Origin: Escherichia phage L14
Sequence record: OQ992558.1
Strand: one strand, 5' to 3'
DNA length: 64,000 nt
The notes beneath the pieces were generated by a model. That model was not told the DNA's origin, made no database searches, and saw only the letters and a list, made by a program, of their open reading frames with translations. The stretch's first letter is position 1; the number at the start of each line of letters is the position of its first letter. Of the stretch, positions 10,267 through 61,225 are shown in pieces. The position numbers and the translations under genes were made by a program.

Positions 10267-10499
10267 AGTACGCCATACACCCTTTGTGCTTCAACTAATC
10301 CATCAAAATCCAATTTGAGATGTGTTATTTGGTCACCATCACCTGGATTCACAATTACTAATACTGAACGAGGAGTTTCGGTAATAACACGAACCGATGT
10401 TTCGGGAAATCGTTCAGAAACCTTATTTACTAATTCCTGCGCAAATAGTTTAACTTTTTCTTGGAATTCTTTAACAGTAATTGGTTTTTCACTTAGCAT
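10263..10499 (-). CDS. hypothetical protein (78 aa)
   Basis: coding-strand ORF. Confidence 0.5.
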   Translation of the reverse strand: MLSEKPITVKEFQEKVKLFAQELVNKVSERFPETSVRVITETPRSVLVIVNPGDGDQITHLKLDFDGLVEAQRVYGVL

Positions 10500-11020
10500 G
10501 TTGATCCCAGCTCCTTACTTTCAACGTTTTTAACTAATTTGACAGAAACTAATTCAGCATCTTGGGTAATCATTACCGGGCCTTCTTCATACTCTTCAAG
10601 ATATTCTAGAGCTTTCTTTTTAGCTTCTTCCTTTGTATCAGTTTGAGCATAGATATAAAACATGCAACCAGTAATACCTACTACTTTCCACTTAATTTCT
10701 TTATCAGTTTTAATTTCAAATTTACTGGCAGAATCATCTTTTTGAACTTCTTCGAAAAAAGAATATTCTAACATATAAGCAATTGAAAATAACGGGCTAA
10801 CTTTATAGGATTCACCCATTACATCAACAGCTTTATACCAACAATCATCAATTTCGCGTTTAATGCTAATAACATTCTTTGCAGGGTCAATTTTTACTTT
10901 AAATGAATTTTCCCCAATAAACTGGGCGATTCGTTTATTAGCCCCGCAAGTTTCATTAAAAATATCTTTATACCCAGTTTTAAAGCGATAAACCTTATCT
11001 TCTTCAAACCATTCGCTCAT
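10493..11020 (-). CDS. hypothetical protein (175 aa)
   Basis: coding-strand ORF, GAGGAAA RBS, early promoter upstream. Confidence 0.55.
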   Translation of the reverse strand: MSEWFEEDKVYRFKTGYKDIFNETCGANKRIAQFIGENSFKVKIDPAKNVISIKREIDDCWYKAVDVMGESYKVSPLFSIAYMLEYSFFEEVQKDDSASKFEIKTDKEIKWKVVGITGCMFYIYAQTDTKEEAKKKALEYLEEYEEGPVMITQDAELVSVKLVKNVESKELGSTC

Positions 11021-13994: not shown

Positions 13995-14025
13995 CATAAA
14001 GTCCTCATGTTATGTCAGTAAGATT

Positions 14026-14055
14026 ACTATAACACAACACGAGGGACTTGTAAAC
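14026..14055 (-). promoter_or_regulatory. T4-type early promoter
   Basis: minus strand GTTTAC-18nt-TATAGT upstream of alc. Confidence 0.5.
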
Positions 14056-14058
14056 AAC

Positions 14059-15646
<1,588 letters not shown>

Positions 15647-15673
15647 AATAAAATGGGCCTTGCGGCCCACTCC

Positions 15674-16852
15674 TTAAAAGTATTTTTTAAAACTCATCAT
15701 AACTTTATCATCAACATCATTATCAATCTGTGCAACAAGATAAGATGACAGTTCTACTTCTTGTGGCGCTGATTGAACATTATCAGAATTAAGATATTCA
15801 CGAATCCAAGGATATGGATGTTTAACCGGAGCATCGGTAATTGGGCATGGAAGACCGCACTGTTTCATACGAGATACAGTTAAGTAATCAATAAAGCTCC
15901 ACATGCTATTTGTATTTAATCCAGGAACATCGCCATCTTTAAATAAATGAACTGCCCAATCTTTTTCTTGACGGTTAACTTCCATGAAAATATCAACTGC
16001 TTCTTGTTCACACTCTTGAGCAATTTTAACCCATTGATCGCCATCAGTACCAGATTGAAGTTGACGAATAATATATTGTGTACCTTTAAGATGAAGCTGC
16101 TCATCACGTGCAATGAACTTCATAATCTTGGCATTACCTTCCATGATTTCCATGTTTTTATGGAAGTTAAAGGTACACGCAAAGGATACATAAAAACGAA
16201 TAGCTTCTAATGCATTAATAACGTGCAAACAGAGGTAAAGAGATTTCATTAGCTCACGCTTCCAATATGTCTCATGCTCAATAGCATCTTCAATAACGTC
16301 TTCGTCTGCATTAATTTCTTTTTGGTATTCGATATCAGCTTTAGCGTTTTCCCAATAACGAGTTTTAATCAGAACATCATCATAATAACGTCCAATGGAT
16401 TCAGCACGTTTCATAATAGCTTCATCTAATACAATTTCATCAAATACCTTCGATGGATCAGTATAAAGATTTCGCATGATATGAGTATATGAACGACTGT
16501 GAATAGTTTCACTAAAAGTCCATGTAGCAACCCATGTATCAAGGCTTGGGTCTGAAATTAATGACATAAGTACAGCAGATGGCGCGCGACCCTGAATGCT
16601 ATCTAAAAGTGATTGATACTTCAAGTTGTTAGTAAAAATATTTTGCTGATACTGAGGAAGCTTATTAAACTGTGCAGCATCCATCATCAAGTTTACTTCT
16701 TCAGGACGCCAGAAAAATGATAATTGCTTTTCGGTTAAATCTTCAAAAACTTTATGACGTTGAATATCATAACGCGCAATACCAAGACCTGAACCAAAAA
16801 ACATAGGTTCTTTTAAAACATCAACTGGATTTGTATTAAAAACTGTGCTCAT
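15674..16852 (-). CDS. nrdB: aerobic ribonucleotide reductase small subunit, uninterrupted
   Basis: 392-aa continuous ORF with class I RNR beta features; no intron. Confidence 0.93.
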   Translation of the reverse strand: MSTVFNTNPVDVLKEPMFFGSGLGIARYDIQRHKVFEDLTEKQLSFFWRPEEVNLMMDAAQFNKLPQYQQNIFTNNLKYQSLLDSIQGRAPSAVLMSLISDPSLDTWVATWTFSETIHSRSYTHIMRNLYTDPSKVFDEIVLDEAIMKRAESIGRYYDDVLIKTRYWENAKADIEYQKEINADEDVIEDAIEHETYWKRELMKSLYLCLHVINALEAIRFYVSFACTFNFHKNMEIMEGNAKIMKFIARDEQLHLKGTQYIIRQLQSGTDGDQWVKIAQECEQEAVDIFMEVNRQEKDWAVHLFKDGDVPGLNTNSMWSFIDYLTVSRMKQCGLPCPITDAPVKHPYPWIREYLNSDNVQSAPQEVELSSYLVAQIDNDVDDKVMMSFKKYF

Positions 16853-16903
16853 AAATTTTCCGCTTAGTTAATAGTTGGTGACTCGTCCGTGAGTCAAATT
16901 ATA

Positions 16904-19168
16904 TCATAATTTACAGGATGAACAATCTTCAGCTTTTGGAGTTTCTATTTCATAATCATCAGTACCAGAACCATCGCGTGTATTATGATAATAGAAATTT
17001 TTAATGCCATAATACCATCCGTATAGCATGTCATCAATCATTATTGACATTGGAACCTTTCCTTTTGGAAAAATCTGCGGATCATAATATGTATTCGCTG
17101 AAGCTGATTGACATACCCATTTCAGCATAATAGCTACCTGCGTAAGATAAGGTTTATTACCTTTCTTGGCTAATTTCCATGTATAATCATAGAGGTCTAT
17201 GTTATGCTCAATATTCGGAACAACTTGATTAAATGAACCATCTTTTGATTCTTTAACACTTACCGGTCCGCGTGGAGGCTCGATGCCGTTTGTACTGTTA
17301 GATACCTGACTGGACGATTCACAAGGCATAAGTGCTGATAATGTGCTATTACGGATGCCAAAGAGCTTAAGGTCTTCCCGCAGCGCCGACCAGTCACAAA
17401 CGTATTTTGGAGCTGCGATTTGGTCAATCTTTTTATTGTACCAGTCGATAGGTAATTCGCCTCGAGACCAACGAGTGTCTGAATAATATTCGCAAGGTCC
17501 TTTTTCTTTGGCGAGCTTAATGGATGCTTTAATGAGTCCATACTGTAATCTCTCAAATAATTCATGTGTTAAATCGTTAGCATCTTCATAAGAAGCAAAG
17601 TTACTTGCCAGCCAAGCTGCATAGTTGGTAACACCTACACCAAGGTTACGGCGCTTTTTAGCTTTTTCTGCTTCAGGAACTGGATATCCTTGGTAATCCA
17701 ACAGATTATCAAGAGCACGAACTTGAACTTCTGCCAATTCATTAATTTTATCTTGGTCTTGCCAGTCAAAATTATCTAGTACGAATGCAGAGAGAGTACA
17801 CAATCCAATTTCAGCATCAGGACTATTCACATCATTTGTTGGAATAGCAATTTCACAGCACAAGTTACTCTGACGAATAGGCGCCTTTTCACGAATAAAC
17901 GGAGTATAGTTATTCGTATTATCAATGAACTGCACATAAATCCTTGCGGTTCCTGAACGTTCAGTCATGAGCAATTCAAATAGTTCACGGGCTTTAATAC
18001 GCTTTTTACGAATATTAGGGTCTTTTTCTGCTGCTTCGTATAATTCACGGAAACGGTCTTGGTCTTTAAAATAAGAATAATAAAGCTCGCCACCCATTTC
18101 ATGCGGACTGAACAAAGTAATGTAATCATTCTTTCCGAATCGTTCCATCATCAAATCATTCAGTTGAACACCATAATCCATATGACGAATGCGGTTTTCT
18201 TCTACGCCTTTGTTATTTTTCAAAACAAGAAGATTTTCAACTTCCAAATGCCAAATAGGATAATAAGCAGTAGCAGCGCCGCCACGAATTCCACCCTGTG
18301 AGCATGATTTAACAGCAGTCTGAAAATGTTTCCAAAAAGGAATAACACCAGTATGGCGTACTTCACCCATGCCAATCTTAGAACCTTCAGCACGAATCAT
18401 ACCAACGTTAATACCAATTCCAGCGCGTTTAGAGATATATTCAACAATTGAAGCAGAAGCCTTATTGATAGACTTCAGTGAATCGCCTGCCTCAATAACA
18501 ACACATGAACTAAACTGCCGAGTTGGAGTACGGCAACCAGCCATAATAGGAGTTGGTAATGAAATCTGTCGAGTAGATACCGCTTCATAAAAACGGATAA
18601 CATGTTTTAATCTATCAACAGGTTCATCTTGATGCAATGCCATTCCAATAGTCATAAATGCAAACTGTGGAGTTTCATAAATTTGACCAGTGGTTTTATC
18701 TTTAACTAGATATTTTTCTTTTAATTGCATCGCCCCGGAATAAGTAAATTCCATATCCCGCTCGTGCTTAATTTTTGATTCTAAAAATGTAATTTCTTCT
18801 GCTGAATATTTTGACAATAATTCAGGGTCATATTTACCTTCATTTACACAGTAAGAAATATGGTCAATAAATGAACGTGGTTCATACTGCCCATAAACAT
18901 GCTTACGAAGAGCGAACATTAAACAACGTGCAGCTACATATTGATAATCAGGCTCTTCAACCGAAATAGAATTCGCAGCGGCCTTAATGACAATAGTCTG
19001 AATATCATCAGTTGTCATTCCATCACGGAGATAAGATTTAATATTTTCATATAATTCATAAGGATCTACTGATGTTCCTTCAGCTGCCCAAGATAAAACT
19101 TTAATAATTTTTTGCGGGTCAAAGCTCTGAGAAACACCACTACTTTTGATAACATTAATTAATTGCAT
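16904..19168 (-). CDS. nrdA: aerobic ribonucleotide reductase large subunit
   Basis: 754 aa, recognised as T4 NrdA. Confidence 0.95.
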   Translation of the reverse strand: MQLINVIKSSGVSQSFDPQKIIKVLSWAAEGTSVDPYELYENIKSYLRDGMTTDDIQTIVIKAAANSISVEEPDYQYVAARCLMFALRKHVYGQYEPRSFIDHISYCVNEGKYDPELLSKYSAEEITFLESKIKHERDMEFTYSGAMQLKEKYLVKDKTTGQIYETPQFAFMTIGMALHQDEPVDRLKHVIRFYEAVSTRQISLPTPIMAGCRTPTRQFSSCVVIEAGDSLKSINKASASIVEYISKRAGIGINVGMIRAEGSKIGMGEVRHTGVIPFWKHFQTAVKSCSQGGIRGGAATAYYPIWHLEVENLLVLKNNKGVEENRIRHMDYGVQLNDLMMERFGKNDYITLFSPHEMGGELYYSYFKDQDRFRELYEAAEKDPNIRKKRIKARELFELLMTERSGTARIYVQFIDNTNNYTPFIREKAPIRQSNLCCEIAIPTNDVNSPDAEIGLCTLSAFVLDNFDWQDQDKINELAEVQVRALDNLLDYQGYPVPEAEKAKKRRNLGVGVTNYAAWLASNFASYEDANDLTHELFERLQYGLIKASIKLAKEKGPCEYYSDTRWSRGELPIDWYNKKIDQIAAPKYVCDWSALREDLKLFGIRNSTLSALMPCESSSQVSNSTNGIEPPRGPVSVKESKDGSFNQVVPNIEHNIDLYDYTWKLAKKGNKPYLTQVAIMLKWVCQSASANTYYDPQIFPKGKVPMSIMIDDMLYGWYYGIKNFYYHNTRDGSGTDDYEIETPKAEDCSSCKL

Positions 19169-19485
19169 AAGTCCTCAACTTGAAAATCGTCTTTAAACAA
19201 TCGGTTAACTATATGAGCTATTATATCACCATGACACGGCTTTGGTTTACATGTGCATCCTAGCCTCATTCCACGTAAAGGCTCTAAATGTGCTTTAGTT
19301 ATTTCTCCGGATTTAATTCGACGTATAAAATCTTTTTTGAATAATTCAATGGCAGCCTCCCGGCTGCCAGCATCTTTACCGACGTAATTTCCCCAAAATG
19401 TACCACGGTGAATATTAACATCAAAGTCGGATTTATATTTATTCACTACCTGGCATAGACGGCCCGCGCGGTGATAATTCGTCAT
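19159..19485 (-). CDS. hypothetical protein (108 aa), Cys/His cluster [11 protein letters not shown]
   Basis: coding-strand ORF between td and nrdA. Confidence 0.5.
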
Positions 19486-19702
19486 ATTGTTTTTCCGTTA
19501 AAACAGTAATATCATAGTAACAATCAGAAGAAGTTTTAACTGTAGAAATTTTATTATCAAAATACTCACGAGTCATTTTATGAGTATAATATTTTTTGCC
19601 ATAAATGATAATAGGCTGATTTGGTCCTGGAACTTCTAACTCACTTGGGTTAGGAAGTGTAAAAAGAACTACACCAGAAGTATCTTTAAATCGTAAAATC
19701 AT
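19439..19702 (-). CDS. hypothetical protein (87 aa)
   Basis: coding-strand ORF; overlaps next ORF by 47 nt so start/stop relationship uncertain. Confidence 0.45.
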
Positions 19703-19725
19703 AAATCCTCACAATTAAATTAAAA

Positions 19726-20037
19726 TTACACCGCCATTTTTCCTTTCAAGACGCCGTGGGACTGATAATCTTTGAGAACGAAATCTTTAGGCCTGAGTTT
19801 AAGAATGTATTCCAATTGTTCTTTAGTAGAAAGATAGCGGAATTTATAAGGCAATCCGCCTATTACCAGTTCACAAAGCTCTTTAGGTTCACGACGCAAA
19901 ATTTCTTTACATTGTTCTACGTGATTCATATAGATATGAGTATTACCACCGGAAAATATCAAATCTCCCGGAATAAGATTACACATCTTAGCTACAATAT
20001 GAACTAACGTAGCATATGATGCAATATTAAATGGAAG
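19726..20037 (-). CDS. td: thymidylate synthase, exon 2
   Basis: encodes LPFNIASYATLVHIVAKMC...; the ATG at the ORF start is the last 3 nt of the intron (omega-G). Confidence 0.9.
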   Translation of the reverse strand, partial: LPFNIASYATLVHIVAKMCNLIPGDLIFSGGNTHIYMNHVEQCKEILRREPKELCELVIGGLPYKFRYLSTKEQLEYILKLRPKDFVLKDYQSHGVLKGKMAV

Positions 20038-20357
20038 CATTATGTTCAGATAAGGTCGTTAATCTTACCCCGGAATTATATCCAGCTGCATGTCACCATG
20101 CAGATCAGACTATATCTTCAACTTGTTAAAGCAAGTTGTCTATCGTTTCGAGTCACTTGACCCTACTCCCCAAAGGGATAGTCGTTAGGCATTTATGTAG
20201 AACCAATTCCATTTATCAGATTTTACACGGTAAGTAACTAATCCTGATGAAATTATTAAAGGGTAGTCCTACAATTTAGCACGGGATTGTCTACTAGAGA
20301 GGTCCCCCGTTTAGATAGATTACAAGTATAAGTCACCTTATACCTAGGCCTCAATTA
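20038..20357 (-). ncRNA. group I self-splicing intron in td, about 320 nt, no internal ORF
   Basis: intron ends match my memory of the T4 td intron (5-prime UAAUUGAGGCCU..., 3-prime ...CUGAACAUAAUG); in-frame TAA directly after exon 1; no ORF over 60 aa inside. Confidence 0.85.
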
Positions 20358-20906
20358 ACCCAAGAAAACATCTACACTGCGTTGATACCATTGTAAATCA
20401 AGATAACCATTACGCACATTAAACTGATAGAACATATGACAAGGTGGTAATGCCATATATTTAAGTTCAGCTGGATTCCACGCAGAAACAATTTGACGCC
20501 TATCACTTGGTAGTTTTTTAATACGATCAATAACTTCTATAATTTGGTCTACACCGCCAAAATCGCGCCACTGTTTTCCATAAATTGGGCCAAGTTCACC
20601 ACTATGGTATCCTAAATCTTTTGCCTGATTTTCGTAATTTTCATCCCAAACTGTTTTGCCTTGGATTAACGAATCATGCTGAATTAATCGTAAATCATTG
20701 ACATTTGTGCTTCCTGATAAAAACCAAAGTAGCTCAGCAATGCAAGCTTTCCAGGCGAGCTTCTTAGTTGTTACCGCAGGAAAACCTTTAGTTAAATCCC
20801 AGCGTAATTTAGTACCGAATAAAGCAATTGTTCCTGTGCCTGTTCGGTCATCGGTTTCATAGCCATTTTCAAAAATGTCTTTAATTAAATCTTGGTATTG
20901 TTTCAT
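20358..20906 (-). CDS. td: thymidylate synthase, exon 1
   Basis: 183 aa ending ...VDVFLG, then intron. Confidence 0.9.
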
Positions 20907-20951
20907 TTAGTACCTTATATAAATTATAATACATTTTATGAAGCTAAATAA

Positions 20952-21299
20952 TCAATACGGTTTAGCATCAAATTTTCTCTCAATTTCAGGTGTGAAATAT
21001 AATTCTTTACCACGTTTGGAAAAGCGACCAATAATATGATAATTATTCTCATCAAACGTGATATTACCAATATCCATAGCTTTCAACCAAATATCGATAT
21101 TTCTATCCAGCTTTATGTCAAAATTCCAATACGGAGAACTATTACCGAAAATACTGCAAGCGGATTCAGTGAAACAACTGCTATAAATCTTGTCTTTAGG
21201 AACTACTAATTGATAGACACCTTTAATAAACTGAGGACCCTGCCACTTTGGCTGTTTCGTGTCTTTTTCTAATAGAATAGGGTAATAATTAAAATTCAT
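20952..21299 (-). CDS. hypothetical protein (115 aa) inserted between frd and td
   Basis: coding-strand ORF MNFNYYPILLEKD...; no motif recognised. Confidence 0.55.
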   Translation of the reverse strand: MNFNYYPILLEKDTKQPKWQGPQFIKGVYQLVVPKDKIYSSCFTESACSIFGNSSPYWNFDIKLDRNIDIWLKAMDIGNITFDENNYHIIGRFSKRGKELYFTPEIERKFDAKPY

Positions 21300-21318
21300 A
21301 TTTCCGCCACGCGTTATT

Positions 21319-22145
<827 letters not shown>

Positions 22146-23291: not shown

Positions 23292-23519
23292 TTATTGTTC
23301 AATCATTCCCATGTAAAATTCTGTGTCTTCAGCATCCATACCATCACAATATTCATTAGCCATAAAGCGGGTGAGGTCTTCAAGAGGACCTTCAATAACG
23401 ATTTGAATACTCCAAAACTTAGAATCTTGTACGCTTGTGATACTAAGTTCAGGATAACGATTACGAATAATTTCTTCAATATATTCAAAATCAACGATGT
23501 CAATATCAACTTTAGCCAT
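23292..23519 (-). CDS. hypothetical protein (75 aa from MAKVDIDIV)
   Basis: internal ATG with strong AAAGAGGAAA RBS; ORF-track 5-prime extension overlaps the promoter. Confidence 0.5.
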
Positions 23520-23562
23520 ATTATTTTCCTCTTTAATTATCAGCAGTATTGCCGATAGTTGT

Positions 23563-23592
23563 ATAGTACCATGGAAGGACAAGGATGTAAAC
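23563..23592 (-). promoter_or_regulatory. T4-type early promoter with A/T-rich upstream element
   Basis: minus strand GTTTAC-18nt-TGGTACTAT; conserved flanks shared with elements near 40.25 kb and 43.9 kb. Confidence 0.5.
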
Positions 23593-23620
23593 CGTTTTGT
23601 GAAAAAATTTTTGAAATAAA

Positions 23621-23652
23621 AAAGGGGACCTCTAGGGTCCCCAATTAATTAG
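23621..23652 (-). terminator. rho-independent terminator downstream of gene 32
   Basis: GGGGACC-loop-GGUCCCC stem followed by UUUUUUAUUU on minus strand. Confidence 0.6.
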
Positions 23653-24573: not shown

Positions 24574-24660
24574 TTTTATTTCCTTTTTTAATTTAATTAA
24601 CAGTTGGTGCTATGACGATGTATGACCTCATAGCTGGTCAGTGAGATAATTATAATCTAT
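24574..24660 (-). promoter_or_regulatory. gene 32 translational operator (5-prime leader pseudoknot plus A/U-rich tract)
   Basis: leader contains GCUAUGAGGUCAUACAUCGUCAUAGCACC then UUAAUUAAAUUAAAAAAGGAAAUAAAA-AUG, matching my memory of the T4 autoregulatory site. Confidence 0.6.
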
Positions 24661-24673
24661 TTATAATAAGCAA

Positions 24674-26939: not shown

Positions 26940-29900
26940 ATGGCCGAGATTAAAAGAAAGTTCAGAGCAGAAGATGGTCTGGACGCAGGTGGCGATAAAA
27001 TAATCAACGTAGCTTTAGCTGATCGTACCGTAGGAACTGACGGTGTTAACGTTGATTACTTAATTCAAGAAAACACAGTTCAACAATATGATCCAACTCG
27101 TGGATATTTAAAAGATTTTGTAATCATTTATAATAATCGTTTTTGGGCAGCAACGGATAATATTCCAAAACCTGCTGGAAATTTTAATAGAATTCGTTGG
27201 AAAGCATTACGTACTGATGCTGTATATACAACCGTATCATCTGGACCATATCAATTAAAATCCGGAGAAGCAATTTCAGTAGATACATCAGTTGGCAATG
27301 ACATTGAGTTTACTTTACCACCTTCTCCGCTTGATGGAGAAACCGTAATAATTCAAGATATCGGTGGAAAACCTGGCATAAATCAGGTTAAAATAAATTC
27401 TTCAAATCAGAGTATTGTCAATTTTAGAGGTGAACAGGTACGTTCAGTTTTAATGACTCATCCAAAGTCACAGATGGTATTCATTTTTAATAACCGTTTG
27501 TGGCAAATGTATATTGCTGATTATAGCAGAGAAGCTGCGATTGTTACTCCATCGACTGCATATCAAGCACAATCTAATGATTTTATCGTGCGTAGATTTA
27601 CTTCCGCTGCGCCGATTAATATTAAACTTCCAAGATTTGCCAATCATGGAGATATCATTAATTTCGTTGATTTAGATAAATTAAATCCACTTTATCATAC
27701 AATTGTTACGACATATGATGAAACGACGTCAGTGCAAGAAGTTGGAACTCATTCCATTGAAGGCCGTACATCGATTGACGGTTTCTTGATGTTTGACGAT
27801 AATGAGAAATTGTGGAGATTGTTTGACGGGGATAGTAAAGCACGTTTACGCATTATAACAACTAATTCAAATATTCGTCCAAATGAAGAAGTCATGGTAT
27901 TTGGTGCGAATAACGGAACAACCCAAACAATTGAACTTCAGCTTCCGACTGATATTTCTGTTGGTGATACTGTTAAAATTTCCATGAATTACATGAGAAA
28001 AGGACAAACAGTTAAAATCAAAGCTGCTGGTGAAGATAAAATTGCTTCTTCAGTTCAATTGCTGCAATTCCCAAAACGTTCAGAATATCCGCCTGAAGCT
28101 GAATGGGTAACAGTTCAAGAATTAGTTTTTAATGGTGAAACTAATTATGTACCAGTTTTACAGCTTGCTTATATCGAAGATTCTGATGGAAAATACTGGG
28201 TTGTACAGCAAAACGTTCCAACAGTTGAAAGAGTCGATTCTTTAAATAATTCTACTAGAGCAAGATTAGGCGTAATTGCTTTAGCTACACAAGCTCAAGC
28301 AAATGCTGATTTAGAAAATTCTCCACAAAAAGAATTAGCAATTACTCCAGAAACGTTAGCTAATCGTACTGCTACTGAAACTCGCAGAGGTATTGCAAGA
28401 ATAGCAACTACTGCTCAAGTAAATCAGAACACCACATTCTCTTTTGCAGATGACATTATCATCACTCCTAAAAAGCTGAATGAAAGAACTGCTACAGAAA
28501 CTCGTAGAGGTGTTGCTGAAATTGCTACGCAGCAAGAAACTAATACAGGTACTGATGATACTACAATCATCACTCCTAAAAAGCTTCAAGCTCGTCAAGG
28601 TTCTGAATCATTATCTGGTATTGTAACTTTTGTATCTACTGCAGGAGCTACTCCAGCTTCTAGTCGTGAATTAAATGGTACGAATGTTTATAATAAAAAC
28701 ACTAATAATTTAGTTGTTTCACCTAAAGCTTTGGATCAGTATAAAGCTACTCCAACGCAACAAGGCGCAGTAATTTTAGCAGTTGAAAGTGAAGTAATTG
28801 CTGGACAAAGCCAAGAAGGATGGGCAAATGCGGTTGTAACACCAGAAACGTTACATAAAAAGACATCAACTGATGGAAGAATTGGTTTAATTGAAATTGC
28901 TACGCAAAGCGAAGTTAATACAGGAACTGATTATACTCGCGCAGTCACTCCTAAAACTTTAAATGACCGTAGAGCAACTGAAAGTTTAAGTGGTATAGCT
29001 GAAATTGCTACGCAAGTTGAATTCGACGCAGGCGTCGACGATACTCGTATCTCTACACCATTAAAAATTAAAACCAGATTTAATAGTACTGATCGTACTT
29101 CTGTTGTTGCTCTATCTGGATTAGTTGAATCAGGAACTCTCTGGGACCATTATACCCTTAATATTCTTGAAGCAAATGAGACACAGCGTGGTACACTTCG
29201 TGTAGCTACACAAGTTGAAGCTGCTGCAGGAACATTGGATAATGTTCTAATAACTCCTAAAAAGCTTTTAGGTACTAAATCTACTGAAGCACAGGAAGGC
29301 GTTATTAAAGTTGCAACTCGGTCTGAAACTGTAGCTGGAACGTCAGCAAATACTGCTGTATCTCCAAAAAATTTAAAATGGATTGTGCAGAGTGAACCTA
29401 CTTGGGCAGCGACTACTGCGATAAGAGGTTTTGTTAAAACTTCGTCTGGTTCAATTACATTCGTTGGTAATGATACAGCTGGTTCAACACAGCCATTAGA
29501 ATCATATGAGAAAAATGGTTATGCAGTATCACCATATGAATTAAATCGCGTATTAGCAAATTATTTGCCATTAAAAGCAAAAGCCGTAGATAGTAATTTA
29601 TTAGATGGTCTAGATTCGCTCCAGTTCATTCGTAGGGACATTGCACAAACAGTTAATGGTTCACTAACCTTAACCCAACAAACGAATCTGGGTGCCCCTC
29701 TTGTATCATCTAGTACTGCTACATTCGGTGGATCAGTTTCAGCAAATAGTACATTAACTATTTCTAATACTGGAACGGCAACTCGTCTGATTTTTGAGAA
29801 AGGACCTCAAACTGGAACAAACCCGGCTCAAACGATGACAGTCAGAGTGTGGGGAAATCAATTTAGCGGGGAATCAGACACAACACGTTCTACCGTATTT

Positions 29901-32654: not shown

Positions 32655-35639
32655 ATGGCTACTTTAAAACAAATACAATTTAAAAGAAGCAAAATTGCAG
32701 GTCAACGTCCTGCAGCTTCAGTATTAGCCGAAGGTGAATTGGCTATAAACTTAAAAGATAAAACAATTTTCACAAAAGATGACTCAGGTAGTGTTATAGA
32801 ATTAGGTTTAAAATATGGAGGAACAATTGATGGTTCTTTAACTGTTAATGGAAATATAATTGGAAATTTAACAGGTAACGCTGCAACTGCAACGAAATTA
32901 AAAACAGCACGAAAAATTAATGGTATATCCTTTGATGGGTCAAAAGATATCACGCTAACTCCATCTGACATAAATGTCAATAGCACAACGTTTATAAAAA
33001 ATAATGGCGAATTACCTGTTGATGCTAATTTAGATACGTATGGGCCTGTTGAAGAATATCTTGGAGTTTGGTCGAAAGCAACTTCAACCAACGCTCAACC
33101 AGCAAATAAATTTCCAGAAGAAAATGCTGTAGGTGTGCTAGAAGTATTTGTGGCCGGTCAATTTGCTGGTACTCAGAGATATACAACTAGATACGGAAAT
33201 GTTTATATTCGTTCCTTGACTGCTACATGGAACGGAGTAAATGGTCCGTGGAGTGTGTGGCGAAATATTCAATCCGGTACTCGTCCACTGTCAACAACAA
33301 TTGATCTTAATGATCTAGGAGGCGCTGAACACTTTGGTTTGTGGCGAAATAGTTCAAATTCCATTGCTACCTTTGACAGAAATTTCCCAGAAGAGGGGTC
33401 GTCAGCTCAAGGTCTTTTGGAAGTATATGAAGGTGGAAAATATTCTCGTACACAAAGATATACAACCAGATTTGGTGTTGTATATACTCGTTGTCTTGCT
33501 GCCGCGTGGGATGCTTCCGCGCCTAAATGGGGACCGTGGCAACAAGTCGGTAATGTCACACCAGCGACTTTCTATGACGGAGATCTGAATGATTTTAAAA
33601 CCCCTGGGTTATATAATATTTTAGGCACTGATGCCGTTATTAACTGTCCTACAGGTGAAGGTTTGCCGCCTGTTATTATTGGTTTACTGGAAGTTAAACA
33701 GCGTGCTTCCGGTGGTGCTATTTTCCAAAAATTTACTACTGCCGGAACGGGTGCAACTACTCGCGGACGTATTTTTGAGCGTGCATATACTGGTGGTGCG
33801 TGGGGCGCATGGAACGAAGTATATACATCTTATTCTCTGCCAATTACTTTGGGTATGGGTGGTATTAAAACTCAATTAGCGGAGCTAGATTGGCAAACAT
33901 TTGATTTTGTTCCTGGTAGTATGTTTAGCGTTCCTTTGAACAAAATAAAGAACATGCCAGCAAATATGGATTGGGGCACGATTGATGGAAACTTGATTAT
34001 GTTTTCCGTCGGTCCTAGCGAACACACTAGCACAGGGCGTACTGTTCAGGTTTGGCGTGGTACTGTATCCCAGACAAACTACCGTTATTTTGTCGTTCGT
34101 GTATTCGGTAATTCAGGAAATAGAGCTTGCACAGTTCGTCGTGTTGTTCTTGAAGATGGTCGCCACAAATGGACAGCGCAACAAGATTTTAATGGTGCTG
34201 TTAACTTCGGTGCTCCTACCAATTTTAACTCTACTGTTAACCTTAATAACACTACCACTTTTAAAACAGAAGTTAAATTTCGCTCATTGAATGCATTCCG
34301 TATGTATGGCGGAAAATTTGGTACATTTTTACGTAATGATGGAGAGAGTCTTTATATTCTTTCCACCGACGAAGATGATCAAGATGGAAACTTTAATACA
34401 AATAGACCTTTCCGTTATGAATTAAGAACTGGTGATGTTACTTTGGGTGGTGCTAGTGGTGCTAACGTTTTAAAATTAAAACGTGATTCTCTCACCGCAT
34501 TTTTTGGTGGTGATATTAACATGAAAGGCTTGATGACTTTTGACGCCGGACGTTTAGGATCACGAGATTATTTTAAATTTAACCATTGGGGTGATAGCAA
34601 TAACGCTCGTGATAACATTATTCAGTTAGAAGATAGCAAAGGCGTTCATTTTTCCACTGAACGTACTTTAGCGACTGGTGCAATTAAAACTAAATTCTTT
34701 GGTGAAGTTGAATCAACTGGTCGATTGACTATTAAACGTCCGGGTGATGCGATTGTATTATCGACTACAGCCAGCAACTCTTTGCATATTCGTGGTGACG
34801 TAGACGGGACTGGTAACTGGTATATTGGCAAGGGTGGTGCTGATAATGGATTAGCGTTCTATAGTTATGCTACTAATGCTGGTGTATACATTACAAACGG
34901 AGGGGATATCGCGCTAAGTCCAAAAGGTGTCGAAATGGCTCAGGTCAATAACGTTCGATTATATGTTCATGGTGAACGTTGGACCGCTAGTCAACCAGGT
35001 GATTGGGGTAGTCAGTGGCAAGTGGAAGCGCCAATATTCGTCGATCATGGTTATGTTTCACAGGATTGTTATTATCCAATTATTAAAGGAAGAAGTGTAA
35101 TCACCAATCAAGGGTATGTAACTGCCGTCGATCTTGGTATTCGTCGTGTCAATAACAATTGGGGACAAGCAATTATTCGTGTTGGATCTGCAGAGGCATC
35201 GCCAGCGGCTGGACACCCTAACGCGGTATTTGAATTTCATTACGACGGTACTTTCTATTCTCCTGGTAATGGTAATTTTAGCGATGTGTATATTCGTTCT
35301 GACTCCCGTCTCAAGATTAATAAAGAAGAATTAGAATATGGAGCGGTCGAAAAAGTTTGCCGACTAAAAGTTTATATTTACGATAAAGTTAAGTCTATTA
35401 AAGACCGTAGTGTTATTAAACGTGAAGTTGGTATTATTGCTCAGGACCTTGAAAAGGAATTGCCGGAAGCTGTATCTAAAGTTGAAGTTGATGGATCTGA
35501 TGTTCTGACAATTTCTAACTCTGCTGTGAATGCTCTTTTAATTAAGGCCATTCAGGAAATGAGCGAAGAAATTAAAGAATTGAAAACACCTTTCTTCACT
35601 AAAATTGCTCGCAAAATTAGTAATTATTTTAAATTCTAA
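32655..35639 (+). CDS. 37: long tail fibre distal subunit with C-terminal intramolecular chaperone domain
   Basis: 994 aa; C-terminal about 113 aa carries an S74-like SDxRxK motif (SDSRLK). Confidence 0.93.
35298..35636 (+). other. predicted self-cleaving intramolecular chaperone domain of gp37
   Basis: motif SDSRLK followed by a coiled-coil-like tail. Confidence 0.55.
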
Positions 35640-35671
35640 CAGCAGGGGGCTTTGCCCCTTTGGAGAAAATT

Positions 35672-36454
35672 ATGGCAGTAGTTGGTGTTCCTGGTTGGAT
35701 TGGTAGTTCATCCGTAAATGAAACAGGACAACGATGGATGAGTCAAGCGGCTGGTCAATTAAGATTGGGTATTCCTTGCTGGATGAGTCAATTTGCAGGT
35801 CGCTCAAGAGAAATTATTCACACGCTTGGAGCAGACCATAACTTCAATGGTCAATGGTTCCGAGATAGATGTTTTGAGGCAGGTAGTGCACCTATAGTGT
35901 TTAATATCACTGGAGATTTAGTATCATATTCTAAAGATGTTCCTTTATTCTTCATGTACGGAGATACACCGAATGAATATGTTCAGTTGAACATACATGG
36001 TGTAACGATGTATGGCCGTGGCGGGAATGGCGGTAGCAATAGTCCTGGCTCAGCTGGGGGTCATTGTATTCAAAATGATATTGGTGGGAGACTAAGAATT
36101 AATAATGGTGGAGCTATTGCTGGCGGCGGTGGCGGCGGGGGCGGCGGGTATTATTCTCCTTTTTCACAAATGAGATTGACCTTTGGCGGTGGCGGCGGTC
36201 GTCCGTTTGGCGCACCGGGCGGATCTATTGATATGCAATCAGGAGCAACTGCTGGTACTATTTCTGCGCCAGGCGCAGGGTCTGTGAACGGTATCTACAA
36301 CGGCGGGTCTGGTGGTGAAGTTGGCTCCGCAGGAGGTAGATGTAATATTCGTGGTCAAGGATATGAATACGATGGCGGAGCTGCTGGTTATGCCGTCATA
36401 GGGTCTACACCGACATGGCAAAACGTTGGAGCAATATATGGTCCAAGAGTATAA
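35672..36454 (+). CDS. 38: tail fibre adhesin gp38, T2-type with glycine-rich motifs
   Basis: 260 aa from ATG at 35672 (GGAG RBS); C-terminal half has GGGGGGGG and other poly-Gly segments separating variable stretches. Confidence 0.85.
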
Positions 36455-36486
36455 TTTTTGAATAAATACCCTTAAAAGGAGGGTCT

Positions 36487-40204: not shown

Positions 40205-40253
40205 TTTTTGTATCTCCGGGTTGTTTGTTTCAGTTCATTTATTTGATAGTTGT

Positions 40254-40283
40254 ATAGTACCATAAAGCTTTATGCTTGTAAAC
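40254..40283 (-). promoter_or_regulatory. T4-type early promoter
   Basis: minus strand GTTTAC-18nt-TGGTACTAT. Confidence 0.5.
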
Positions 40284-40300
40284 CGTTTTGTGAAAAAATT

Positions 40301-40333
40301 TTGAAATAAAAAAGGGAGAGCCGAGGCTCTCCC
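40301..40333 (-). terminator. rho-independent terminator after the gene 52 operon
   Basis: GGGAGAGCC-loop-GGCUCUCCC stem followed by UUUUUUAUUU on minus strand. Confidence 0.6.
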
Positions 40334-43265: not shown

Positions 43266-43365
43266 AGTAAGCGTTTAATACATCAATCATTAAAACGATT
43301 GGGAATATACTCAAAACTATTAGTATTATAACTACATTCCATATAGCTTTAATAATCTTTTTCAT
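43252..43365 (-). CDS. small membrane peptide (37 aa)
   Basis: internal ATG with GGAGG RBS; longer ORF-track version overlaps an early promoter. Confidence 0.4.
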   Translation of the reverse strand: MKKIIKAIWNVVIILIVLSIFPIVLMIDVLNAYFGFM

Positions 43366-43393
43366 TTTCTGTTCCTCCGTAGTTGATAGAGTA

Positions 43394-43423
43394 ATAGTAC
43401 CACGGAAGAACAGTCTTGTAAAC
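43394..43423 (-). promoter_or_regulatory. T4-type early promoter
   Basis: minus strand GTTTAC-18nt-TACTAT. Confidence 0.5.
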
Positions 43424-43608
43424 AACTTTTTTAAAAATATTCGTAATAAATGTGAATACCAACTACTACCGCTGAAACCTGTGCAACCCACCACGCGCAA
43501 GCAATAAGTACAGAATTCAAAATTTTCATAATAACCTCATTACAAAAGTAAATGTTAAACAAATTACTGGAATACTAATTAACCAAACAAAACACCACCA
43601 TAATGAAC

Positions 43609-43872
43609 TCATAGTTCAATCTCAACGATTTTCATTTCATTACTATTAATAGCCTCTTTAAGACTATCTGAAAGAATTACATTCCAGTGGTCATTCATAT
43701 GACCATTAACTAAGCGTGTAATTTCTTCAGGAGTTGAAAAATAAGGCTGATCGGACTCCCAATGCGATAATCCTAAGCGAGTATAAATCATACCTTCATC
43801 ATCGCTAGAATATTCAACTGACACAAACTCATCAGTTATTTTATGCTTAGCATAATAAAATTTAAATTTCAT
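43609..43872 (-). CDS. hypothetical protein (87 aa)
   Basis: internal ATG with GGAG RBS; ORF-track 5-prime extension overlaps an early promoter. Confidence 0.5.
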   Translation of the reverse strand: MKFKFYYAKHKITDEFVSVEYSSDDEGMIYTRLGLSHWESDQPYFSTPEEITRLVNGHMNDHWNVILSDSLKEAINSNEMKIVEIEL

Positions 43873-43906
43873 TTTACTCTCCAAATCCGTATCAGTTGAT
43901 AGTTGT

Positions 43907-43936
43907 ATAGTACCACGGTCCTTGTGGTATGTAAAC
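43907..43936 (-). promoter_or_regulatory. T4-type early promoter
   Basis: minus strand GTTTAC-18nt-TGGTACTAT. Confidence 0.5.
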
Positions 43937-43952
43937 CGTTTTGTGAAAATTT

Positions 43953-44510
43953 TTAAATGGAAAGATACCATCCGTTGTAGTTGCTTTTTCTTACAACCTT
44001 ACGAAGGTCTTCTCTATCACCGATGAACTTCGGAGTGTACTGGATGACACCTGGGTGAATTTCTTTAGTGTTGAATATAATTATACAGTCAGCGACCTGA
44101 TGATTCAGAATGGGCCCTAGATTTATTCCAGAACCGTATGGATACTCTCCGCTGCATCCTGTTGTTACAGAAATCCAACGTGAGTCAGTTTGATGTGTCT
44201 TAACTTCTACACGAAGCCCACAGTATCTTGGATGTGCTAAAACATCCCATGCATATGTATACGGATCATCGACATCTTCTTGGCCTTTATTGACATATCC
44301 GCTTAGCCAATCTGCCACAAAAAACTCTGCGTACACAGCGATACGACATCTTTCGATAACTTCTGCCTTATCCTGATTTGGGTTTTGTTTTAAAGAGTAT
44401 CTTGCAGTATCAGCAATTTTGACCTTCATTTCACTAGTCAAGTCACTGTTCGATAGGGTAAATGTCGGAATCTGAAATAGTCTCTGTAAACCCGGATTCG
44501 TTTTCTGCAT
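43953..44510 (-). CDS. denB: endonuclease IV (cytosine-DNA specific)
   Basis: 185 aa, size and position match T4 denB; AGGAAAG RBS; sequence recall moderate. Confidence 0.7.
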   Translation of the reverse strand: MQKTNPGLQRLFQIPTFTLSNSDLTSEMKVKIADTARYSLKQNPNQDKAEVIERCRIAVYAEFFVADWLSGYVNKGQEDVDDPYTYAWDVLAHPRYCGLRVEVKTHQTDSRWISVTTGCSGEYPYGSGINLGPILNHQVADCIIIFNTKEIHPGVIQYTPKFIGDREDLRKVVRKSNYNGWYLSI

Positions 44511-48400: not shown

Positions 48401-48430
48401 ATTATACCACATCCTTGTGGTAAAGTAAAC
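48401..48430 (-). promoter_or_regulatory. T4-type early promoter
   Basis: minus strand GTTTAC-18nt-GGTATAAT. Confidence 0.5.
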
Positions 48431-50250
48431 TACTGGCTCATCCATTCTTTACGAAGGTCAGCATTATCTCCCATGAGCATTTCAAAAAGCTCTTTCCAGT
48501 TCTCAGGAAGTTTAACAACATCATATACTGGATTTTGAATCATCTCACGATATTCAGATTTTTCCAAAGAGCCAAGTCCTTTAATATAACGGATGCTATG
48601 TTTAGGTAGAGCATCTTTAGCACTCTCATATTCAGCGACTGTATAAAACCATTCTTGTTTTTTACCGACCTGAGCGATGATTACAGGAGTTTTGACAAAA
48701 CGAATTCTTCCTTGCTCAAACAGTTCTGGCCAATTACTAAAAAACCCGAGCAGAGAAGGATAAATGCTTCCTAGACCATCATGGTCAGCATCAGTCATAA
48801 TAGCAATATTATGATAATTCAAGTTTTCAGCTTTTTCACCGAGAACTAATCCAGTGATTGCGCAAATATCAAACAATTCTTTGTTTTTAAGCATATCAGC
48901 ATATGACATACCCCAACTGTTGAGAACTTTACCGCGCAATGGATAACCACCATGAAGTTCTTTATCACGAACATCAATAAGATATCCGATAGCAGAATCA
49001 CCCTCAGTCAAGAAAAGAGTAGTGTCAGCATCTTTACCGCAAAGATTCGCTTTAATGTGTTTATGAACCTTAGCTTTAGAAGCCTTTTTAGCTGCTTTAG
49101 TTTCTGCTGCCTTTTCTGCCGCCAATTTACGAGCCAAAGCAGCTTCAATAATTGGCATTAAAATTGCTTCATTGTTTAAAATAGCACGTGAAATCTTTTT
49201 AGCATCAAGCTGAATATGACTACGAATTTCACCAAATGGAGAAGTCAAACGCTCTTTAGTTTGAGAATCAAATCGCATGTTTTTCATATCACGAACAAAC
49301 ATAACGATAGTCAAACATTCTTTAACACGTGCTTTAGTTACATCAATTTTGAACTTACGTTTGATTTGTGGAATAAGGTCTTCACAAATATCATCCATAA
49401 CACAGTCAATGTGATGGCCACCATTCTTAGTGTGAATGTTATTGACGTATGTTAATTGACGAAAACCATCCGGTGAACGACCAACCGCAATAGAACAATT
49501 TTCTTGTTCTTGAACAATAGCATGCTCATCATATTGGCGTGCATATTTCTTAAAATTGCCCTGAACCTTTTTACCATTAAAGGTAAATTGAATATCAGGA
49601 TAAACTACTGCAAGTGTCTGGAGACGATCTAGTGTAATGTCAAGATAAACTTGGGACAGCTCATTAGTTTCAAATGACATAAAATCAGGAATGAAAGTAA
49701 CACGAGTTCCTTTCCATTTTCCAGGAATAGTTTCCCATGATTTATTTTCCATGCCATTTGAACAACGAACTACAATATTATTTTGACCATCACCAGTTTC
49801 ACCGACAAACATCACAGAAAAAATGTTTGTCAAACTAGAACCAACACCATTCATACCGCCAGTGACGCGTTCTTTATCATCACCGAAGTTACCACCTGCT
49901 TTTGGAATAGTCCATGCAGCAACAGGACCAGGAATTTCTTCACCGGTAGGTGTTTTAACCATCGCCTGCGGAATACCACGACCGTTATCTTCAACTGTTA
50001 CTTGATTGTTTTTAATAGTAACATTAATTTTATTTGCGAATTTAAACTTAGTACGAATACCTTCATCTACTGAGTTATCGATAATTTCATCAATAAGCTT
50101 AACAAGACCAGGTACATACTGAACACTTTCCCATTTACCAAACAGAAAGCGCTCATGCATTTCATTAGCAGAAGAGCCAATATACATGCCGCTACGCTTT
50201 TTGATATGTTCAATATCACTCAGAATTTTAATTTCATTCTTAATCATCAC
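48430..50250 (-). CDS. 39: DNA topoisomerase II large subunit (GyrB-like ATPase), continuous
   Basis: 606 aa single ORF spanning what T4 splits into gene 39 and gene 60. Confidence 0.93.
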   Translation of the reverse strand: MMIKNEIKILSDIEHIKKRSGMYIGSSANEMHERFLFGKWESVQYVPGLVKLIDEIIDNSVDEGIRTKFKFANKINVTIKNNQVTVEDNGRGIPQAMVKTPTGEEIPGPVAAWTIPKAGGNFGDDKERVTGGMNGVGSSLTNIFSVMFVGETGDGQNNIVVRCSNGMENKSWETIPGKWKGTRVTFIPDFMSFETNELSQVYLDITLDRLQTLAVVYPDIQFTFNGKKVQGNFKKYARQYDEHAIVQEQENCSIAVGRSPDGFRQLTYVNNIHTKNGGHHIDCVMDDICEDLIPQIKRKFKIDVTKARVKECLTIVMFVRDMKNMRFDSQTKERLTSPFGEIRSHIQLDAKKISRAILNNEAILMPIIEAALARKLAAEKAAETKAAKKASKAKVHKHIKANLCGKDADTTLFLTEGDSAIGYLIDVRDKELHGGYPLRGKVLNSWGMSYADMLKNKELFDICAITGLVLGEKAENLNYHNIAIMTDADHDGLGSIYPSLLGFFSNWPELFEQGRIRFVKTPVIIAQVGKKQEWFYTVAEYESAKDALPKHSIRYIKGLGSLEKSEYREMIQNPVYDVVKLPENWKELFEMLMGDNADLRKEWMSQ

Positions 50251-50316: not shown

Positions 50317-50586
50317 TTATTTAAAACGGATAGTCGAATCCTTGAAGAATAGACCAGAACACACGGTTCCTTCTACTTTCTGCCCAGTAGGTCCAATAGC
50401 ACGAAATCCAGTATGTTGAAAATCATTTTCAGAGCAACCGAACCAGTTGTATCCAGTGATTTCAATATTAGTAAAACCACTTGAAGACAAAACTTTGGTT
50501 GCATTATCAGCATCAGTACATCCTGCTAAAGACACTGCTAATACTAATGCTGCGATAGAACGATTAATATATTTCATAGTTTTCAC
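50317..50586 (-). CDS. putative lipoprotein (89 aa)
   Basis: signal peptide plus lipobox LAGC. Confidence 0.6.
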   Translation of the reverse strand: MKTMKYINRSIAALVLAVSLAGCTDADNATKVLSSSGFTNIEITGYNWFGCSENDFQHTGFRAIGPTGQKVEGTVCSGLFFKDSTIRFK

Positions 50587-50954
50587 TTAAATTTAATGGC
50601 TTGAAGGAGACTAATAATTCTCAAGCGACTTCTTTCATCTTTAACCGTAAATGAAAGAGGGTCACCAGATTTCATAATGATAGTGCATTCAAAATCAAAA
50701 TCTTCGGGAACTTCTTCGAAGAAGTCAAATTCTTCATCATATATTAGAACATTACTCTGAAAACTGTGAAGAATTTTTCCATCATTTCCAGATGCTGTAC
50801 TAATCATTGTAACATTATTACCTTTCATATCTTCAACGATAAATTCGCTTGTAGATATTACGGCATTAATAGAACCATTCCTATAAATAGCAGAAAATAG
50901 ATATTTCTTTTCTTCACCTTCGCGAATGCGATATTTCTTACCAATTTTAAACAT
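50583..50954 (-). CDS. hypothetical protein (123 aa)
   Basis: coding-strand ORF. Confidence 0.55.
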   Translation of the reverse strand: MFKIGKKYRIREGEEKKYLFSAIYRNGSINAVISTSEFIVEDMKGNNVTMISTASGNDGKILHSFQSNVLIYDEEFDFFEEVPEDFDFECTIIMKSGDPLSFTVKDERSRLRIISLLQAIKFK

Positions 50955-51764: not shown

Positions 51765-51935
51765 TACAATTTCCTCGTTAATTGAACATTGGAGCGATGC
51801 GTTTCAGAAGAGTAGCAGCACCTTTGGCAAATTTTCCATTTTATTCTCCAAGTTATTTTCTGTATCAGTAGTTGATATTGATATAGTACCATAATCAACT
51901 ACTGATGTATATAGTTTTATGAAAAAATTTAAACT

Positions 51936-60859: not shown

Positions 60860-60885
60860 AGTGCTCTCCTCTATAAGATAATTCT

Positions 60886-60915: not shown

Positions 60916-60921
60916 CGGTAA

Positions 60922-61194: not shown

Positions 61195-61225
61195 AATAAA
61201 CTCCTTTATTGTTTAATTACAGGTG

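Follow-up and report, generated by a model that had tools for sequence, protein, structure and literature searches.

The stretch of DNA analysed here (the window) is 64 kb of the approximately 168-kb genome of Escherichia phage L14. It very probably holds no homing endonuclease gene, and its unoccupied loci at the nrdA–nrdB, 32–59, and 56–soc junctions and within gene 39 are ordinary alleles of a T4-like (Tequatrovirus) phage, as in phage T2; its td gene carries a group I intron from which I-TevI was deleted. The positions of the features are listed in Table 1. The six homing endonuclease ORFs of T4 that map to the interval covered by the window (I-TevIII, mobE, I-TevI, segG, mobA, and segF) are all absent, and the other nine of the 15 T4 endonuclease loci are located outside it. 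These are clean presence-or-absence differences from a reference genome, and therefore the absence of the T4 endonucleases is not a matter of chance. A preliminary description of this DNA had called the lineage apparently largely free of the T4 endonuclease load. The statement holds for the six T4 genes of the interval, but not for the td intron with its remnant of I-TevI. The T4 gene order on which the description relied agrees with the annotation of the T4 record NC_000866, in which nrdB is in two pieces around I-TevIII, followed by nrdB.1, mobE, and nrdA, while segG separates gene 32 from gene 59 and segF separates soc from gene 56.

Table 1 Positions of genes, spacers, and endonuclease-related sites in the window
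Feature	Position	Strand	Description
Window-only ORF	10493–11020		175 aa; phrog_3710, no known function
nrdB	15674–16852	minus	Single 392-aa ORF, intronless; length equals T2 nrdB
Empty nrdB intron insertion site	16176/16177	minus	Site intact; blastn breakpoint against T4
MobE nick region of nrdB (nt 114–131)	16722–16739	minus	T2-type sequence; codon 42 is AAG (alignment)
nrdA–nrdB spacer	16853–16903	minus	51 bp, ORF-free
nrdA, large subunit	16904–19168	minus	Uninterrupted 754-aa ORF
td exon 2	19726–20037	minus	Alignment to T4 td
td group I intron, without I-TevI ORF	20038–20357	minus	320 nt; 696-nt deletion relative to T4
I-TevI 3′-end remnant	20185–20265	minus	Last 26 codons and stop; overlaps intron core
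td exon 1	20358–20906	minus	ORF and alignment to T4 td
Window-only ORF between td and frd	20952–21299		115 aa; absent in T4; phrog_1928, no known function
32–59 spacer (T4 segG site)	24574–24673	minus	100 bp; same as T2 spacer except one extra A
Gene 39, unsplit	48430–50250		606-aa ORF
T4-insert position within gene 39	48766–48829	minus	T4 holds 1117 bp: gene 60 bypass region, 60.1, mobA
Window-only ORF	50583–50954		123 aa; no known function
56–soc interval (T4 segF site)	61195–61603	minus	409 bp; two small ORFs instead of segF
Small ORF 2 of 56–soc interval	61234–61407		57 aa; unrelated to second small ORF of T2
Small ORF 1 of 56–soc interval	61404–61604		66 aa; homologous to T2 ORF at equivalent place

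The nrdA–nrdB junction lacks an intron and mobE

The genes nrdA and nrdB form a compact pair, with a 51-bp spacer between them. The preliminary description had placed the two genes about 50 bp apart and nrdB in one continuous 392-aa reading frame without an intron, and both statements were confirmed. Rfam models identified no intron in nrdB or nrdA, and no group I intron other than that of td is present in the 64 kb. In the blastn map against T4, the 598-bp nrdB intron of T4 corresponds to a gap of zero length at window position 16176/16177, and the exon-junction sequence of the window has one mismatch in approximately 40 positions to the spliced nrdB junction of T4. The T4 genes nrdB.1 and mobE, which span 700 bp, correspond to window positions 16853–16907. 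There is no ORF between the stop codon of nrdA and the start codon of nrdB, and thus no MobE-type free-standing HNH gene at this place.

The window has the gene order and orientation of the nrd–td region in common with T4, and the nucleotide identity to T4 is 96–97% in nrdA, nrdB exon 2, and td. What T4 has and the window lacks are mobE, nrdB.1, the nrdB intron, and the ORF of I-TevI. Identity to T4 drops to only 85.7% where nrdB aligns with T4 exon 1, and the 3′ end of nrdA differs between the two phages. The I-TevIII of T4, which is defective, is itself a deletion derivative.

The organization of the junction is that of T2, which has a spacer of the same length and an intronless nrdB encoding the same number of residues. 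The spacers of the two phages are identical in 47 of 51 positions, and nrdA has a nucleotide identity of 97% to T4 and T2 alike. The window also shares with T2 the AAG at codon 42 of nrdB and the sequence of the MobE nick region. The MobE nick sites were mapped in T2 nrdB to nt 122–126, and AAG is present in all phages lacking mobE (PMC2790892).

Phages without mobE have no terminator in the nrdA–nrdB spacer (PMC2790892), and the spacer of the window agrees with this in having no terminator-like site. In such phages, nrdB promoter and ribosome-binding signals have been reported within the spacer. The spacer of the window contains a TATAAT hexamer directly after the nrdA stop codon, which, together with the published reports, suggests that it may carry nrdB promoter and ribosome-binding signals as well. 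A sigma-70 scan of the spacer gave only 9-of-12 matches. A middle promoter with a MotA box was also looked for by eye; the poor MotA-box-like sequence ATTGTTCAT, positioned 14 nt upstream of TATAAT, was not counted as evidence.

The 32–59, 56–soc, and gene 39 loci

The 32–59 and 56–soc intervals had been described as too short for the seg genes that T4 carries there. Indeed, segG and segF are absent from these intervals of 100 bp and 409 bp, but the 56–soc interval is not empty. In the blastn map against T4, the segG segment of T4 (623 bp) falls at window positions 24638–24672, and segF corresponds to positions 61234–61640, which hold a different sequence. PHROGs placed the two small ORFs of the 56–soc interval in phrog_5782 and phrog_9053, which are both non-nuclease families.

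The similarity to T2 extends to these loci. The T2 32–59 spacer, of approximately 100 bp, is identical to that of the window apart from one A, and gene 39 is unsplit in both phages. T2 has a homolog of the first of the two small ORFs that follow gene 56, and between td and frd it carries the same 115-aa ORF. Nevertheless, the two phages differ elsewhere: td of T2 is intronless, whereas that of the window holds an ORF-less intron; T2 has dam, which the window lacks; and soc is only 62% identical between them. Gene 56 is a third allele, only 74% identical to that of T2 and 76% to that of T4, and therefore sensitivity to SegF cannot be inferred from it. The T2 loci are the standard recipient alleles in studies of T4 × T2 marker exclusion and of homing into intronless sites.

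Unoccupied sites are common among T4 relatives

A contiguous nrdA–nrdB junction is present in 376 of 511 matching phage records, a contiguous 32–59 junction in 356 of 429, and an unsplit gene 39 sequence in 452 of 472, whereas only 118 records contain the T4 nrdB intron at a coverage of at least 80%; because the records include duplicate and laboratory-strain entries, these are not counts of independent lineages. The preliminary description had regarded the absence of endonuclease genes as a property of this lineage, but most sequenced Tequatrovirus records share it, as does T2. That most relatives of T4 lack its endonuclease genes is already known, and T4 has been called an outlier in a review (PMC2988022).

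The sites could alternatively be secondarily empty, if mobE, the nrdB intron, segG, and segF had once been present and then disappeared without a trace, as could happen through recombination with empty alleles. We consider this unlikely, but not to be dismissed lightly. From the td intron it is clear that an endonuclease was once present in the genome, or in its td segment, and that loss of I-TevI is possible, yet no remnant whatever is present at the nrdA–nrdB, 32–59, and 56–soc junctions. The part of nrdB most diverged from T2 is nt 400–700, around the intron site, with an identity of 83–88% per 100 nt, but the spacers are almost the same as those of T2. T-even genomes are mosaic, with the best-matching record shifting between segments, and empty alleles could therefore be re-imported; however, a deletion of mobE from T4 would remove the middle promoter of nrdB and be selected against (PMC2790892). 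The preferred reading is that the sites are ordinary unoccupied alleles, as in T2.

Searches for endonuclease genes in the window

The window-specific and junction segments contain no HNH or GIY-YIG match to Pfam in any of the six frames, and the window-specific ORFs have no such match to Pfam or PHROGs. These profile searches identified no degenerate endonuclease remnant at nrdA–nrdB, 32–59, or 56–soc, in agreement with the preliminary description. The sole GIY-YIG match to Pfam in the window is DenA, which also served as a positive control. Another positive control was the insert of phage U115, which was detected as a homing endonuclease (phrog_655, E 2.4e-57). Custom profiles made from nine GIY-YIG and seven HNH proteins of T4 performed weakly against 1206 six-frame ORFs. 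With the GIY profile, even DenA reached an E-value of only 1.5, and the searches with Pfam and PHROGs were therefore preferred.

The 15 T4 endonuclease proteins, used as queries in tblastn and phmmer searches, identified no endonuclease gene, but detected the I-TevI remnant in td. For mobA–E and I-TevIII, the best E-value of the two programs anywhere in the window was 0.045, and for segG the best tblastn match had an E-value of 2.9. A weak match of segF at positions 1963–2298 (E 0.021) is located inside alt, in the reading frame of alt itself, and was treated as a chance similarity.

An alternative is that one of the window-specific ORFs encodes an unrecognized endonuclease of a new family, in which case the window would contain an endonuclease gene after all. 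The window-only ORFs without a known function lie between conserved genes, which is also where free-standing endonuclease genes are located. However, Pfam and PHROGs detect no nuclease domain in them, all the candidates are shorter than would be expected of a homing endonuclease with two domains, and the 115-aa ORF and an 81-aa ORF are equally placed in T2, a classic recipient in homing crosses. A hidden endonuclease is thus very improbable, and we favor a window without any homing endonuclease gene.

The td intron contains a remnant of I-TevI

The td intron is the one trace of endonuclease history in the 64 kb. It matches the Rfam family RF00028 with a score of 70.3 bits (gathering score 50; E 8e-16) over model positions 1–253 of 253, and its predicted fold has a minimum free energy of −85.6 kcal/mol and a z-score of −2.76. 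The insertion site is identical to that of the T4 td intron, the splice junctions align with those of T4, and the core sequences are approximately 97% identical. Exons 1 and 2 joined together encode a 286-aa thymidylate synthase, 274 residues of which are identical to the protein of the intronless T2 gene. The intron, at its T4 position, is predicted to be splicing-competent.

Within the intron, 22 of 22 aligned residues are identical to I-TevI (tblastn E 1.9e-9; phmmer E 2.4e-11). The remnant also matches the Pfam family PF20987 (I-TevI_DNA-bd) with 33.6 bits, above the cut-off of 27, although only over profile positions 32–51 of 51. It has no start codon and is a fragment rather than a gene. 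The deletion removed the start codon of I-TevI, the region upstream of it, and approximately 219 codons, so that no N-terminal GIY-YIG domain is left. The remnant differs from T4 in three nucleotides, none of which changes an amino acid when read in the I-TevI frame. What is left of the gene is confined to the 3′ codons overlapping the ribozyme core, and therefore these codons were probably retained for the function of the RNA rather than of the protein. The deletion endpoints lie within short direct repeats TTTAA(T/A)AA, which are present in the T4 sequence, and the I-TevI gene was lost by deletion between these repeats. Phages e11/2 and CJY920 have other deletion endpoints within the same intron. 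The preliminary description had named degenerate remnants as evidence against an endonuclease-free state, and this single one is located in td, outside the three junctions considered there.

That the short intron is ancestral and never contained an ORF, with I-TevI inserted later in T4, is disfavored and scarcely credible: although an ORF-less origin of group I introns, with later invasion by endonuclease genes, has been proposed (PMC3073962), approximately 78 nt of I-TevI coding sequence are retained in frame, only approximately 20 nt of the ORF have been reported as contributing to the intron core (PMC3073962), the retained stretch exceeds the curated Pfam cut-off for the I-TevI DNA-binding family, the three differences from T4 are all synonymous, and the endpoints coincide with T4 direct repeats and differ from those of e11/2 and CJY920. 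Deletion of I-TevI from an ORF-containing intron is the preferred explanation. The searched literature yielded no description of a natural ORF-less td intron, but the allele may have been described before. The work of Sandegren and Sjoberg from 2004 is reportedly the likeliest source of such a description.

Phage U115 and the life cycle of homing endonucleases

The genome is, as judged from sequence comparisons, a mosaic. No record matches the window over its whole length, and the closest record changes by segment, from U115 (MZ753803; 98.9% identity over window positions 15000–20000) to Elenatom or Pinarejo (approximately 97%) and SHFML-26 (96.6%). U115 and the window are identical over positions 17652–21500 and share the ORF-less td intron and the same nrdB. 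Unlike the window, U115 has a gene for a 243-aa MobE-like HNH protein between nrdA and nrdB, and the first 105 residues of this protein have an identity of 62% to T4 MobE. The two phages have 41 differences at window positions 16908–17651, approximately 750 bp of the 3′ part of nrdA adjoining the MobE-like gene.

Homing endonucleases are said, in the model of Goddard and Burt, to pass through a life cycle of invasion, fixation, degeneration, and loss. The window resembles the degeneration stage in that it keeps an intron from which the endonuclease ORF has been deleted, and several independent td deletion alleles exist among its relatives, of the window/U115, e11/2, and CJY920 types. It is possible, with a likelihood somewhat short of even, that such a life cycle is in progress within one phage backbone. 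The intron stripped of I-TevI would still block the homing site as a form of heritable immunity, at least three I-TevI deletion alleles would have arisen independently, two of them between short direct repeats, and a MobE-like gene would only recently have converted the empty allele in U115, a near-clonal sister, leaving approximately 750 bp of asymmetric flank.

The preliminary description regarded the unoccupied loci as natural targets in mixed infection. This corresponds to the established marker exclusion between T2 and T4 (PMC2790892, PMC2988022), but the loci are not uniform in this respect: gene 56 is a third allele, and td would not be a target of I-TevI because it is occupied by the intron. 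Experiments with T2 suggest that, on co-infection with a relative that carries the endonucleases, the empty nrdB site would be nicked and converted. I-TevI recognizes the intronless exon junction, and the intron in the homing site is thus expected to protect td. Conversion of T2-type empty sites is already known, and it explained the marker exclusion between T2 and T4 decades after this was first seen.

For annotation, td should be treated as split by a 320-nt intron, and the I-TevI fragment within this intron should not be listed as an endonuclease gene. The pair formed by the window and U115, together with the ORF-less td introns, could provide natural material for estimating how long co-conversion tracts are and how fast endonucleases decay. 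If the life cycle is indeed in progress within this backbone, the gain and decay of homing endonucleases in nature, and the lengths of their co-conversion tracts, could be measured from public Tequatrovirus genomes.

Gene content of the window

The window is a Tequatrovirus (T4-like) segment, oriented like the T4 reference (NC_000866). According to the ORF layout and alignment to T4, it carries alt and gene 30, followed by cd, pseT, rnlA, denA, nrdB, nrdA, td, and frd; then 32, 59, 33, rnh, and the tail-fibre genes 34-38; and finally motA, 52, rIIB, rIIA, 39, dexA, dda, modA/B, soc, 56, and 61. The blastn identity to T4 exceeds 90% across the window, save for a short list of window-only segments. 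Positions 15000-20000 are 98.9% identical to Escherichia phage U115 (MZ753803) and about 98% identical to many phages of E. coli, Shigella, and Yersinia. Over the full 64 kb, there is no one record in the database that matches.

Features of the td, nrdA-nrdB, and gene 39 loci
Feature	Position	Strand	Description
nrdB	15674-16852	minus	single 392-aa ORF
nrdA	16904-19168	minus	single 754-aa ORF
td exon 2	19726-20037	minus	
td group I intron	20038-20357	minus	320 nt, I-TevI ORF deleted
td exon 1	20358-20906	minus	
gene 39	48430-50250		single 606-aa ORF; lacks the gene 60 split, the 50-nt translational bypass, and mobA

Empty endonuclease sites

The preliminary description of nrdB as intronless, and of the nrdA-nrdB locus as free of endonuclease genes, is borne out: each gene is uninterrupted, the two are 51 bp apart, and an Rfam scan of the whole window detected no intron in either. 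Its account of the T4 gene order also agrees with the T4 record: there, nrdB is assembled from two pieces that flank the defective I-TevIII gene, the space between nrdA and nrdB is taken up by nrdB.1 and mobE, segG separates 32 from 59, and segF separates soc from 56. In the blastn map, the 598-bp T4 nrdB intron corresponds to a zero-length point in the window (16176/16177), and the insertion site is undisturbed; the 700 bp of nrdB.1 and mobE correspond to 55 bp (16853-16907). The seg genes are likewise missing, as proposed: the 623 bp of segG are represented by 35 bp, and the segF position is occupied by 407 bp of unrelated sequence. The 1117 bp of T4 that comprise the gene 60 bypass region, 60.1, and mobA, which had not been mentioned, are absent as well. 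In total, six of the 15 T4 endonuclease genes map to the interval covered by the window and none of the six is present, the other nine loci being outside the 64 kb.

Degenerate remnants were sought at the junctions. With the 15 T4 endonuclease proteins as queries, neither tblastn on the window nor phmmer on its 1206 six-frame ORFs gave a significant match at any junction. Since the window aligns to T4 except in the window-only segments, a further endonuclease gene would be located in those segments. Their ORFs contain no nuclease family from Pfam or PHROGs, and six-frame translations of all window-only segments and every junction contain no HNH or GIY-YIG family from Pfam. As positive controls, DenA was recognised as a GIY-YIG protein and the U115 insert as a homing endonuclease (E 2.4e-57).

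Codon 42 of nrdB is AAG in the window, surrounded by T2-type sequence, and CGG in T4. The MobE nick sites in T2 nrdB are at nt 122-126, and AAG is present at codon 42 in all phages that lack mobE, for which a spacer without a terminator has also been reported (PMC2790892). No terminator-like site was found in the nrdA-nrdB spacer of the window. Both nicking at the nrdB site and promoter function of the spacer are putative. The part of nrdB corresponding to T4 exon 1 (16177-16852) is 85.7% identical to T4, compared with about 97% in exon 2 and nrdA; relative to T2, the identity of nrdB dips in the neighbourhood of the intron insertion site (nt 400-700).

Decayed I-TevI in the td intron

The proposal that the lineage is largely free of the T4 endonuclease load holds for the six mapped genes, but it overlooked a group I intron in td, about 900 bp upstream of nrdA, that retains a decayed I-TevI. 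The intron covers the whole Rfam model (70.3 bits; gathering score 50) and shares its insertion site with that of T4. It is predicted to splice, and once joined, the two exons specify a 286-aa thymidylate synthase. Relative to the 1016-nt T4 intron, 696 nt are gone: the stretch preceding I-TevI, the start codon of that gene, and about 219 of its codons, with the deletion endpoints inside TTTAA(T/A)AA repeats. The final 26 codons are kept: 22 of 22 residues match T4 (tblastn E 1.9e-9; phmmer E 2.4e-11), and the sequence differs here from T4 at three nucleotides, each a synonymous change in the I-TevI frame. The fragment scores 33.6 bits (cut-off 27) against the Pfam I-TevI DNA-binding profile (PF20987). 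Intron structures needed for splicing draw about 20 nt from the 3' end of the I-TevI ORF (PMC3073962), and the survival of this end can probably be attributed to this contribution.

The ORF-less form of the intron is present at ≥99% identity in 30 of 291 intron-matching records. Phages e11/2 and CJY920 have other deletion endpoints, those of e11/2 being between CATTTTAAA repeats. An ancestral intron that never contained an ORF was set aside on the basis of the remnant and the deletion endpoints. Because the endpoints differ among phages, lie in repeats in the window and in e11/2, and in the window leave a synonymously changed remnant, the td intron form is read from these sequences as the product of recurrent I-TevI decay.

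Additional differences from T4

Gene 56 (dCTPase; 61604-62122) is a third allele, with nucleotide identities of 74% to T2 and 76% to T4, and soc (60958-61194) is about 62% identical to either phage. Both are far more diverged than their neighbours (95-98% identity); the same region flanks segF in T4. The dam gene, positioned between 56 and 61 in T4 and T2, is absent: about 20 bp (62163-62182) replace 899 bp of T4, and Dam has no tblastn match anywhere in the window.

Window-only ORFs of 175 aa (10493-11020, between cd.2 and cd.3) and 123 aa (50583-50954, between 39.1 and 39.2) are related through phrog_3710 and phrog_622, with weak Pfam FRD2 and goF-like similarity. A 115-aa ORF (phrog_1928; 20952-21299) separates td and frd, which overlap in T4; it is shared with T2 and U115. 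The distal tail-fibre region (32810-36461) does not align to T4, and the gene 38 position is occupied by a 264-aa ORF (35660-36454; 183 aa in T4), which we take to be the T2-type adhesin arrangement. The match of a 118-aa ORF (63588-63944) to Pfam AdfA (anti-DarT factor A) is confined to the C-terminal half of the profile (113-211/211); the T4 gene at this position, 61.2, is longer, whereas the short form recurs in T2.

Intergenic stretches of 60-120 bp (14002-14058, 23509-23626, 40243-40329, 43361-43437, 43867-43958, 51830-51930, and 60862-60946) each have matches of 78-97% identity in several unrelated intergenic loci of T4 (for example T4 27033-27101, 55344-55430, 70614-70720, 146837-146909, and 163592-163707), and may represent early-promoter or stem-loop cassettes present in multiple copies.

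Empty sites among related phages and mixed infection

The endonuclease-poor state is not peculiar to this lineage. Counted in database records, some of them duplicates, so that the frequencies are approximate, the nrdA-nrdB junction is contiguous in 376 of 511 records matching a 211-bp probe (the rest being split by an annotated homing endonuclease), the 32-59 junction in 356 of 429, and gene 39 is unsplit, its common state, in 452 of 472; only 118 records contain the T4 nrdB intron at ≥80% coverage. T2 has the same organization, with a 51-bp nrdA-nrdB spacer (47/51 identical), a 392-aa NrdB, an unsplit gene 39, and a 32-59 spacer differing by one base. Empty sites are a common and already well-known condition; T4 is the outlier, and most related genomes contain few endonuclease insertions (PMC2988022).

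Phage U115 has no mismatch to the window over 3.85 kb (17652-21500), and its nrdB is nearly identical. In contrast to the window, it has a gene for a 243-aa HNH protein between nrdA and nrdB, with 62% identity to T4 MobE across the first 105 aa. The 41 mismatches between the two phages cluster at 16908-17651, the 3' approximately 750 bp of nrdA, adjoining the MobE-like insert. Homing accompanied by one-sided co-conversion would be expected to leave such a pattern, and, judged from the alignment, it looks like the trace of a recent event, which may have been a gain in U115 or a loss in the window.

Endonuclease targeting is the established explanation of T2 marker exclusion in T2 x T4 crosses (PMC2790892, PMC2988022). 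The suggestion that the empty loci are targets in mixed infection fits nrdB, with its T2-type nick region and intact insertion site, but it cannot be extended to SegF at gene 56, since that gene is a third allele. A second exception is td, which should be protected from cutting by I-TevI because its intron occupies the site.
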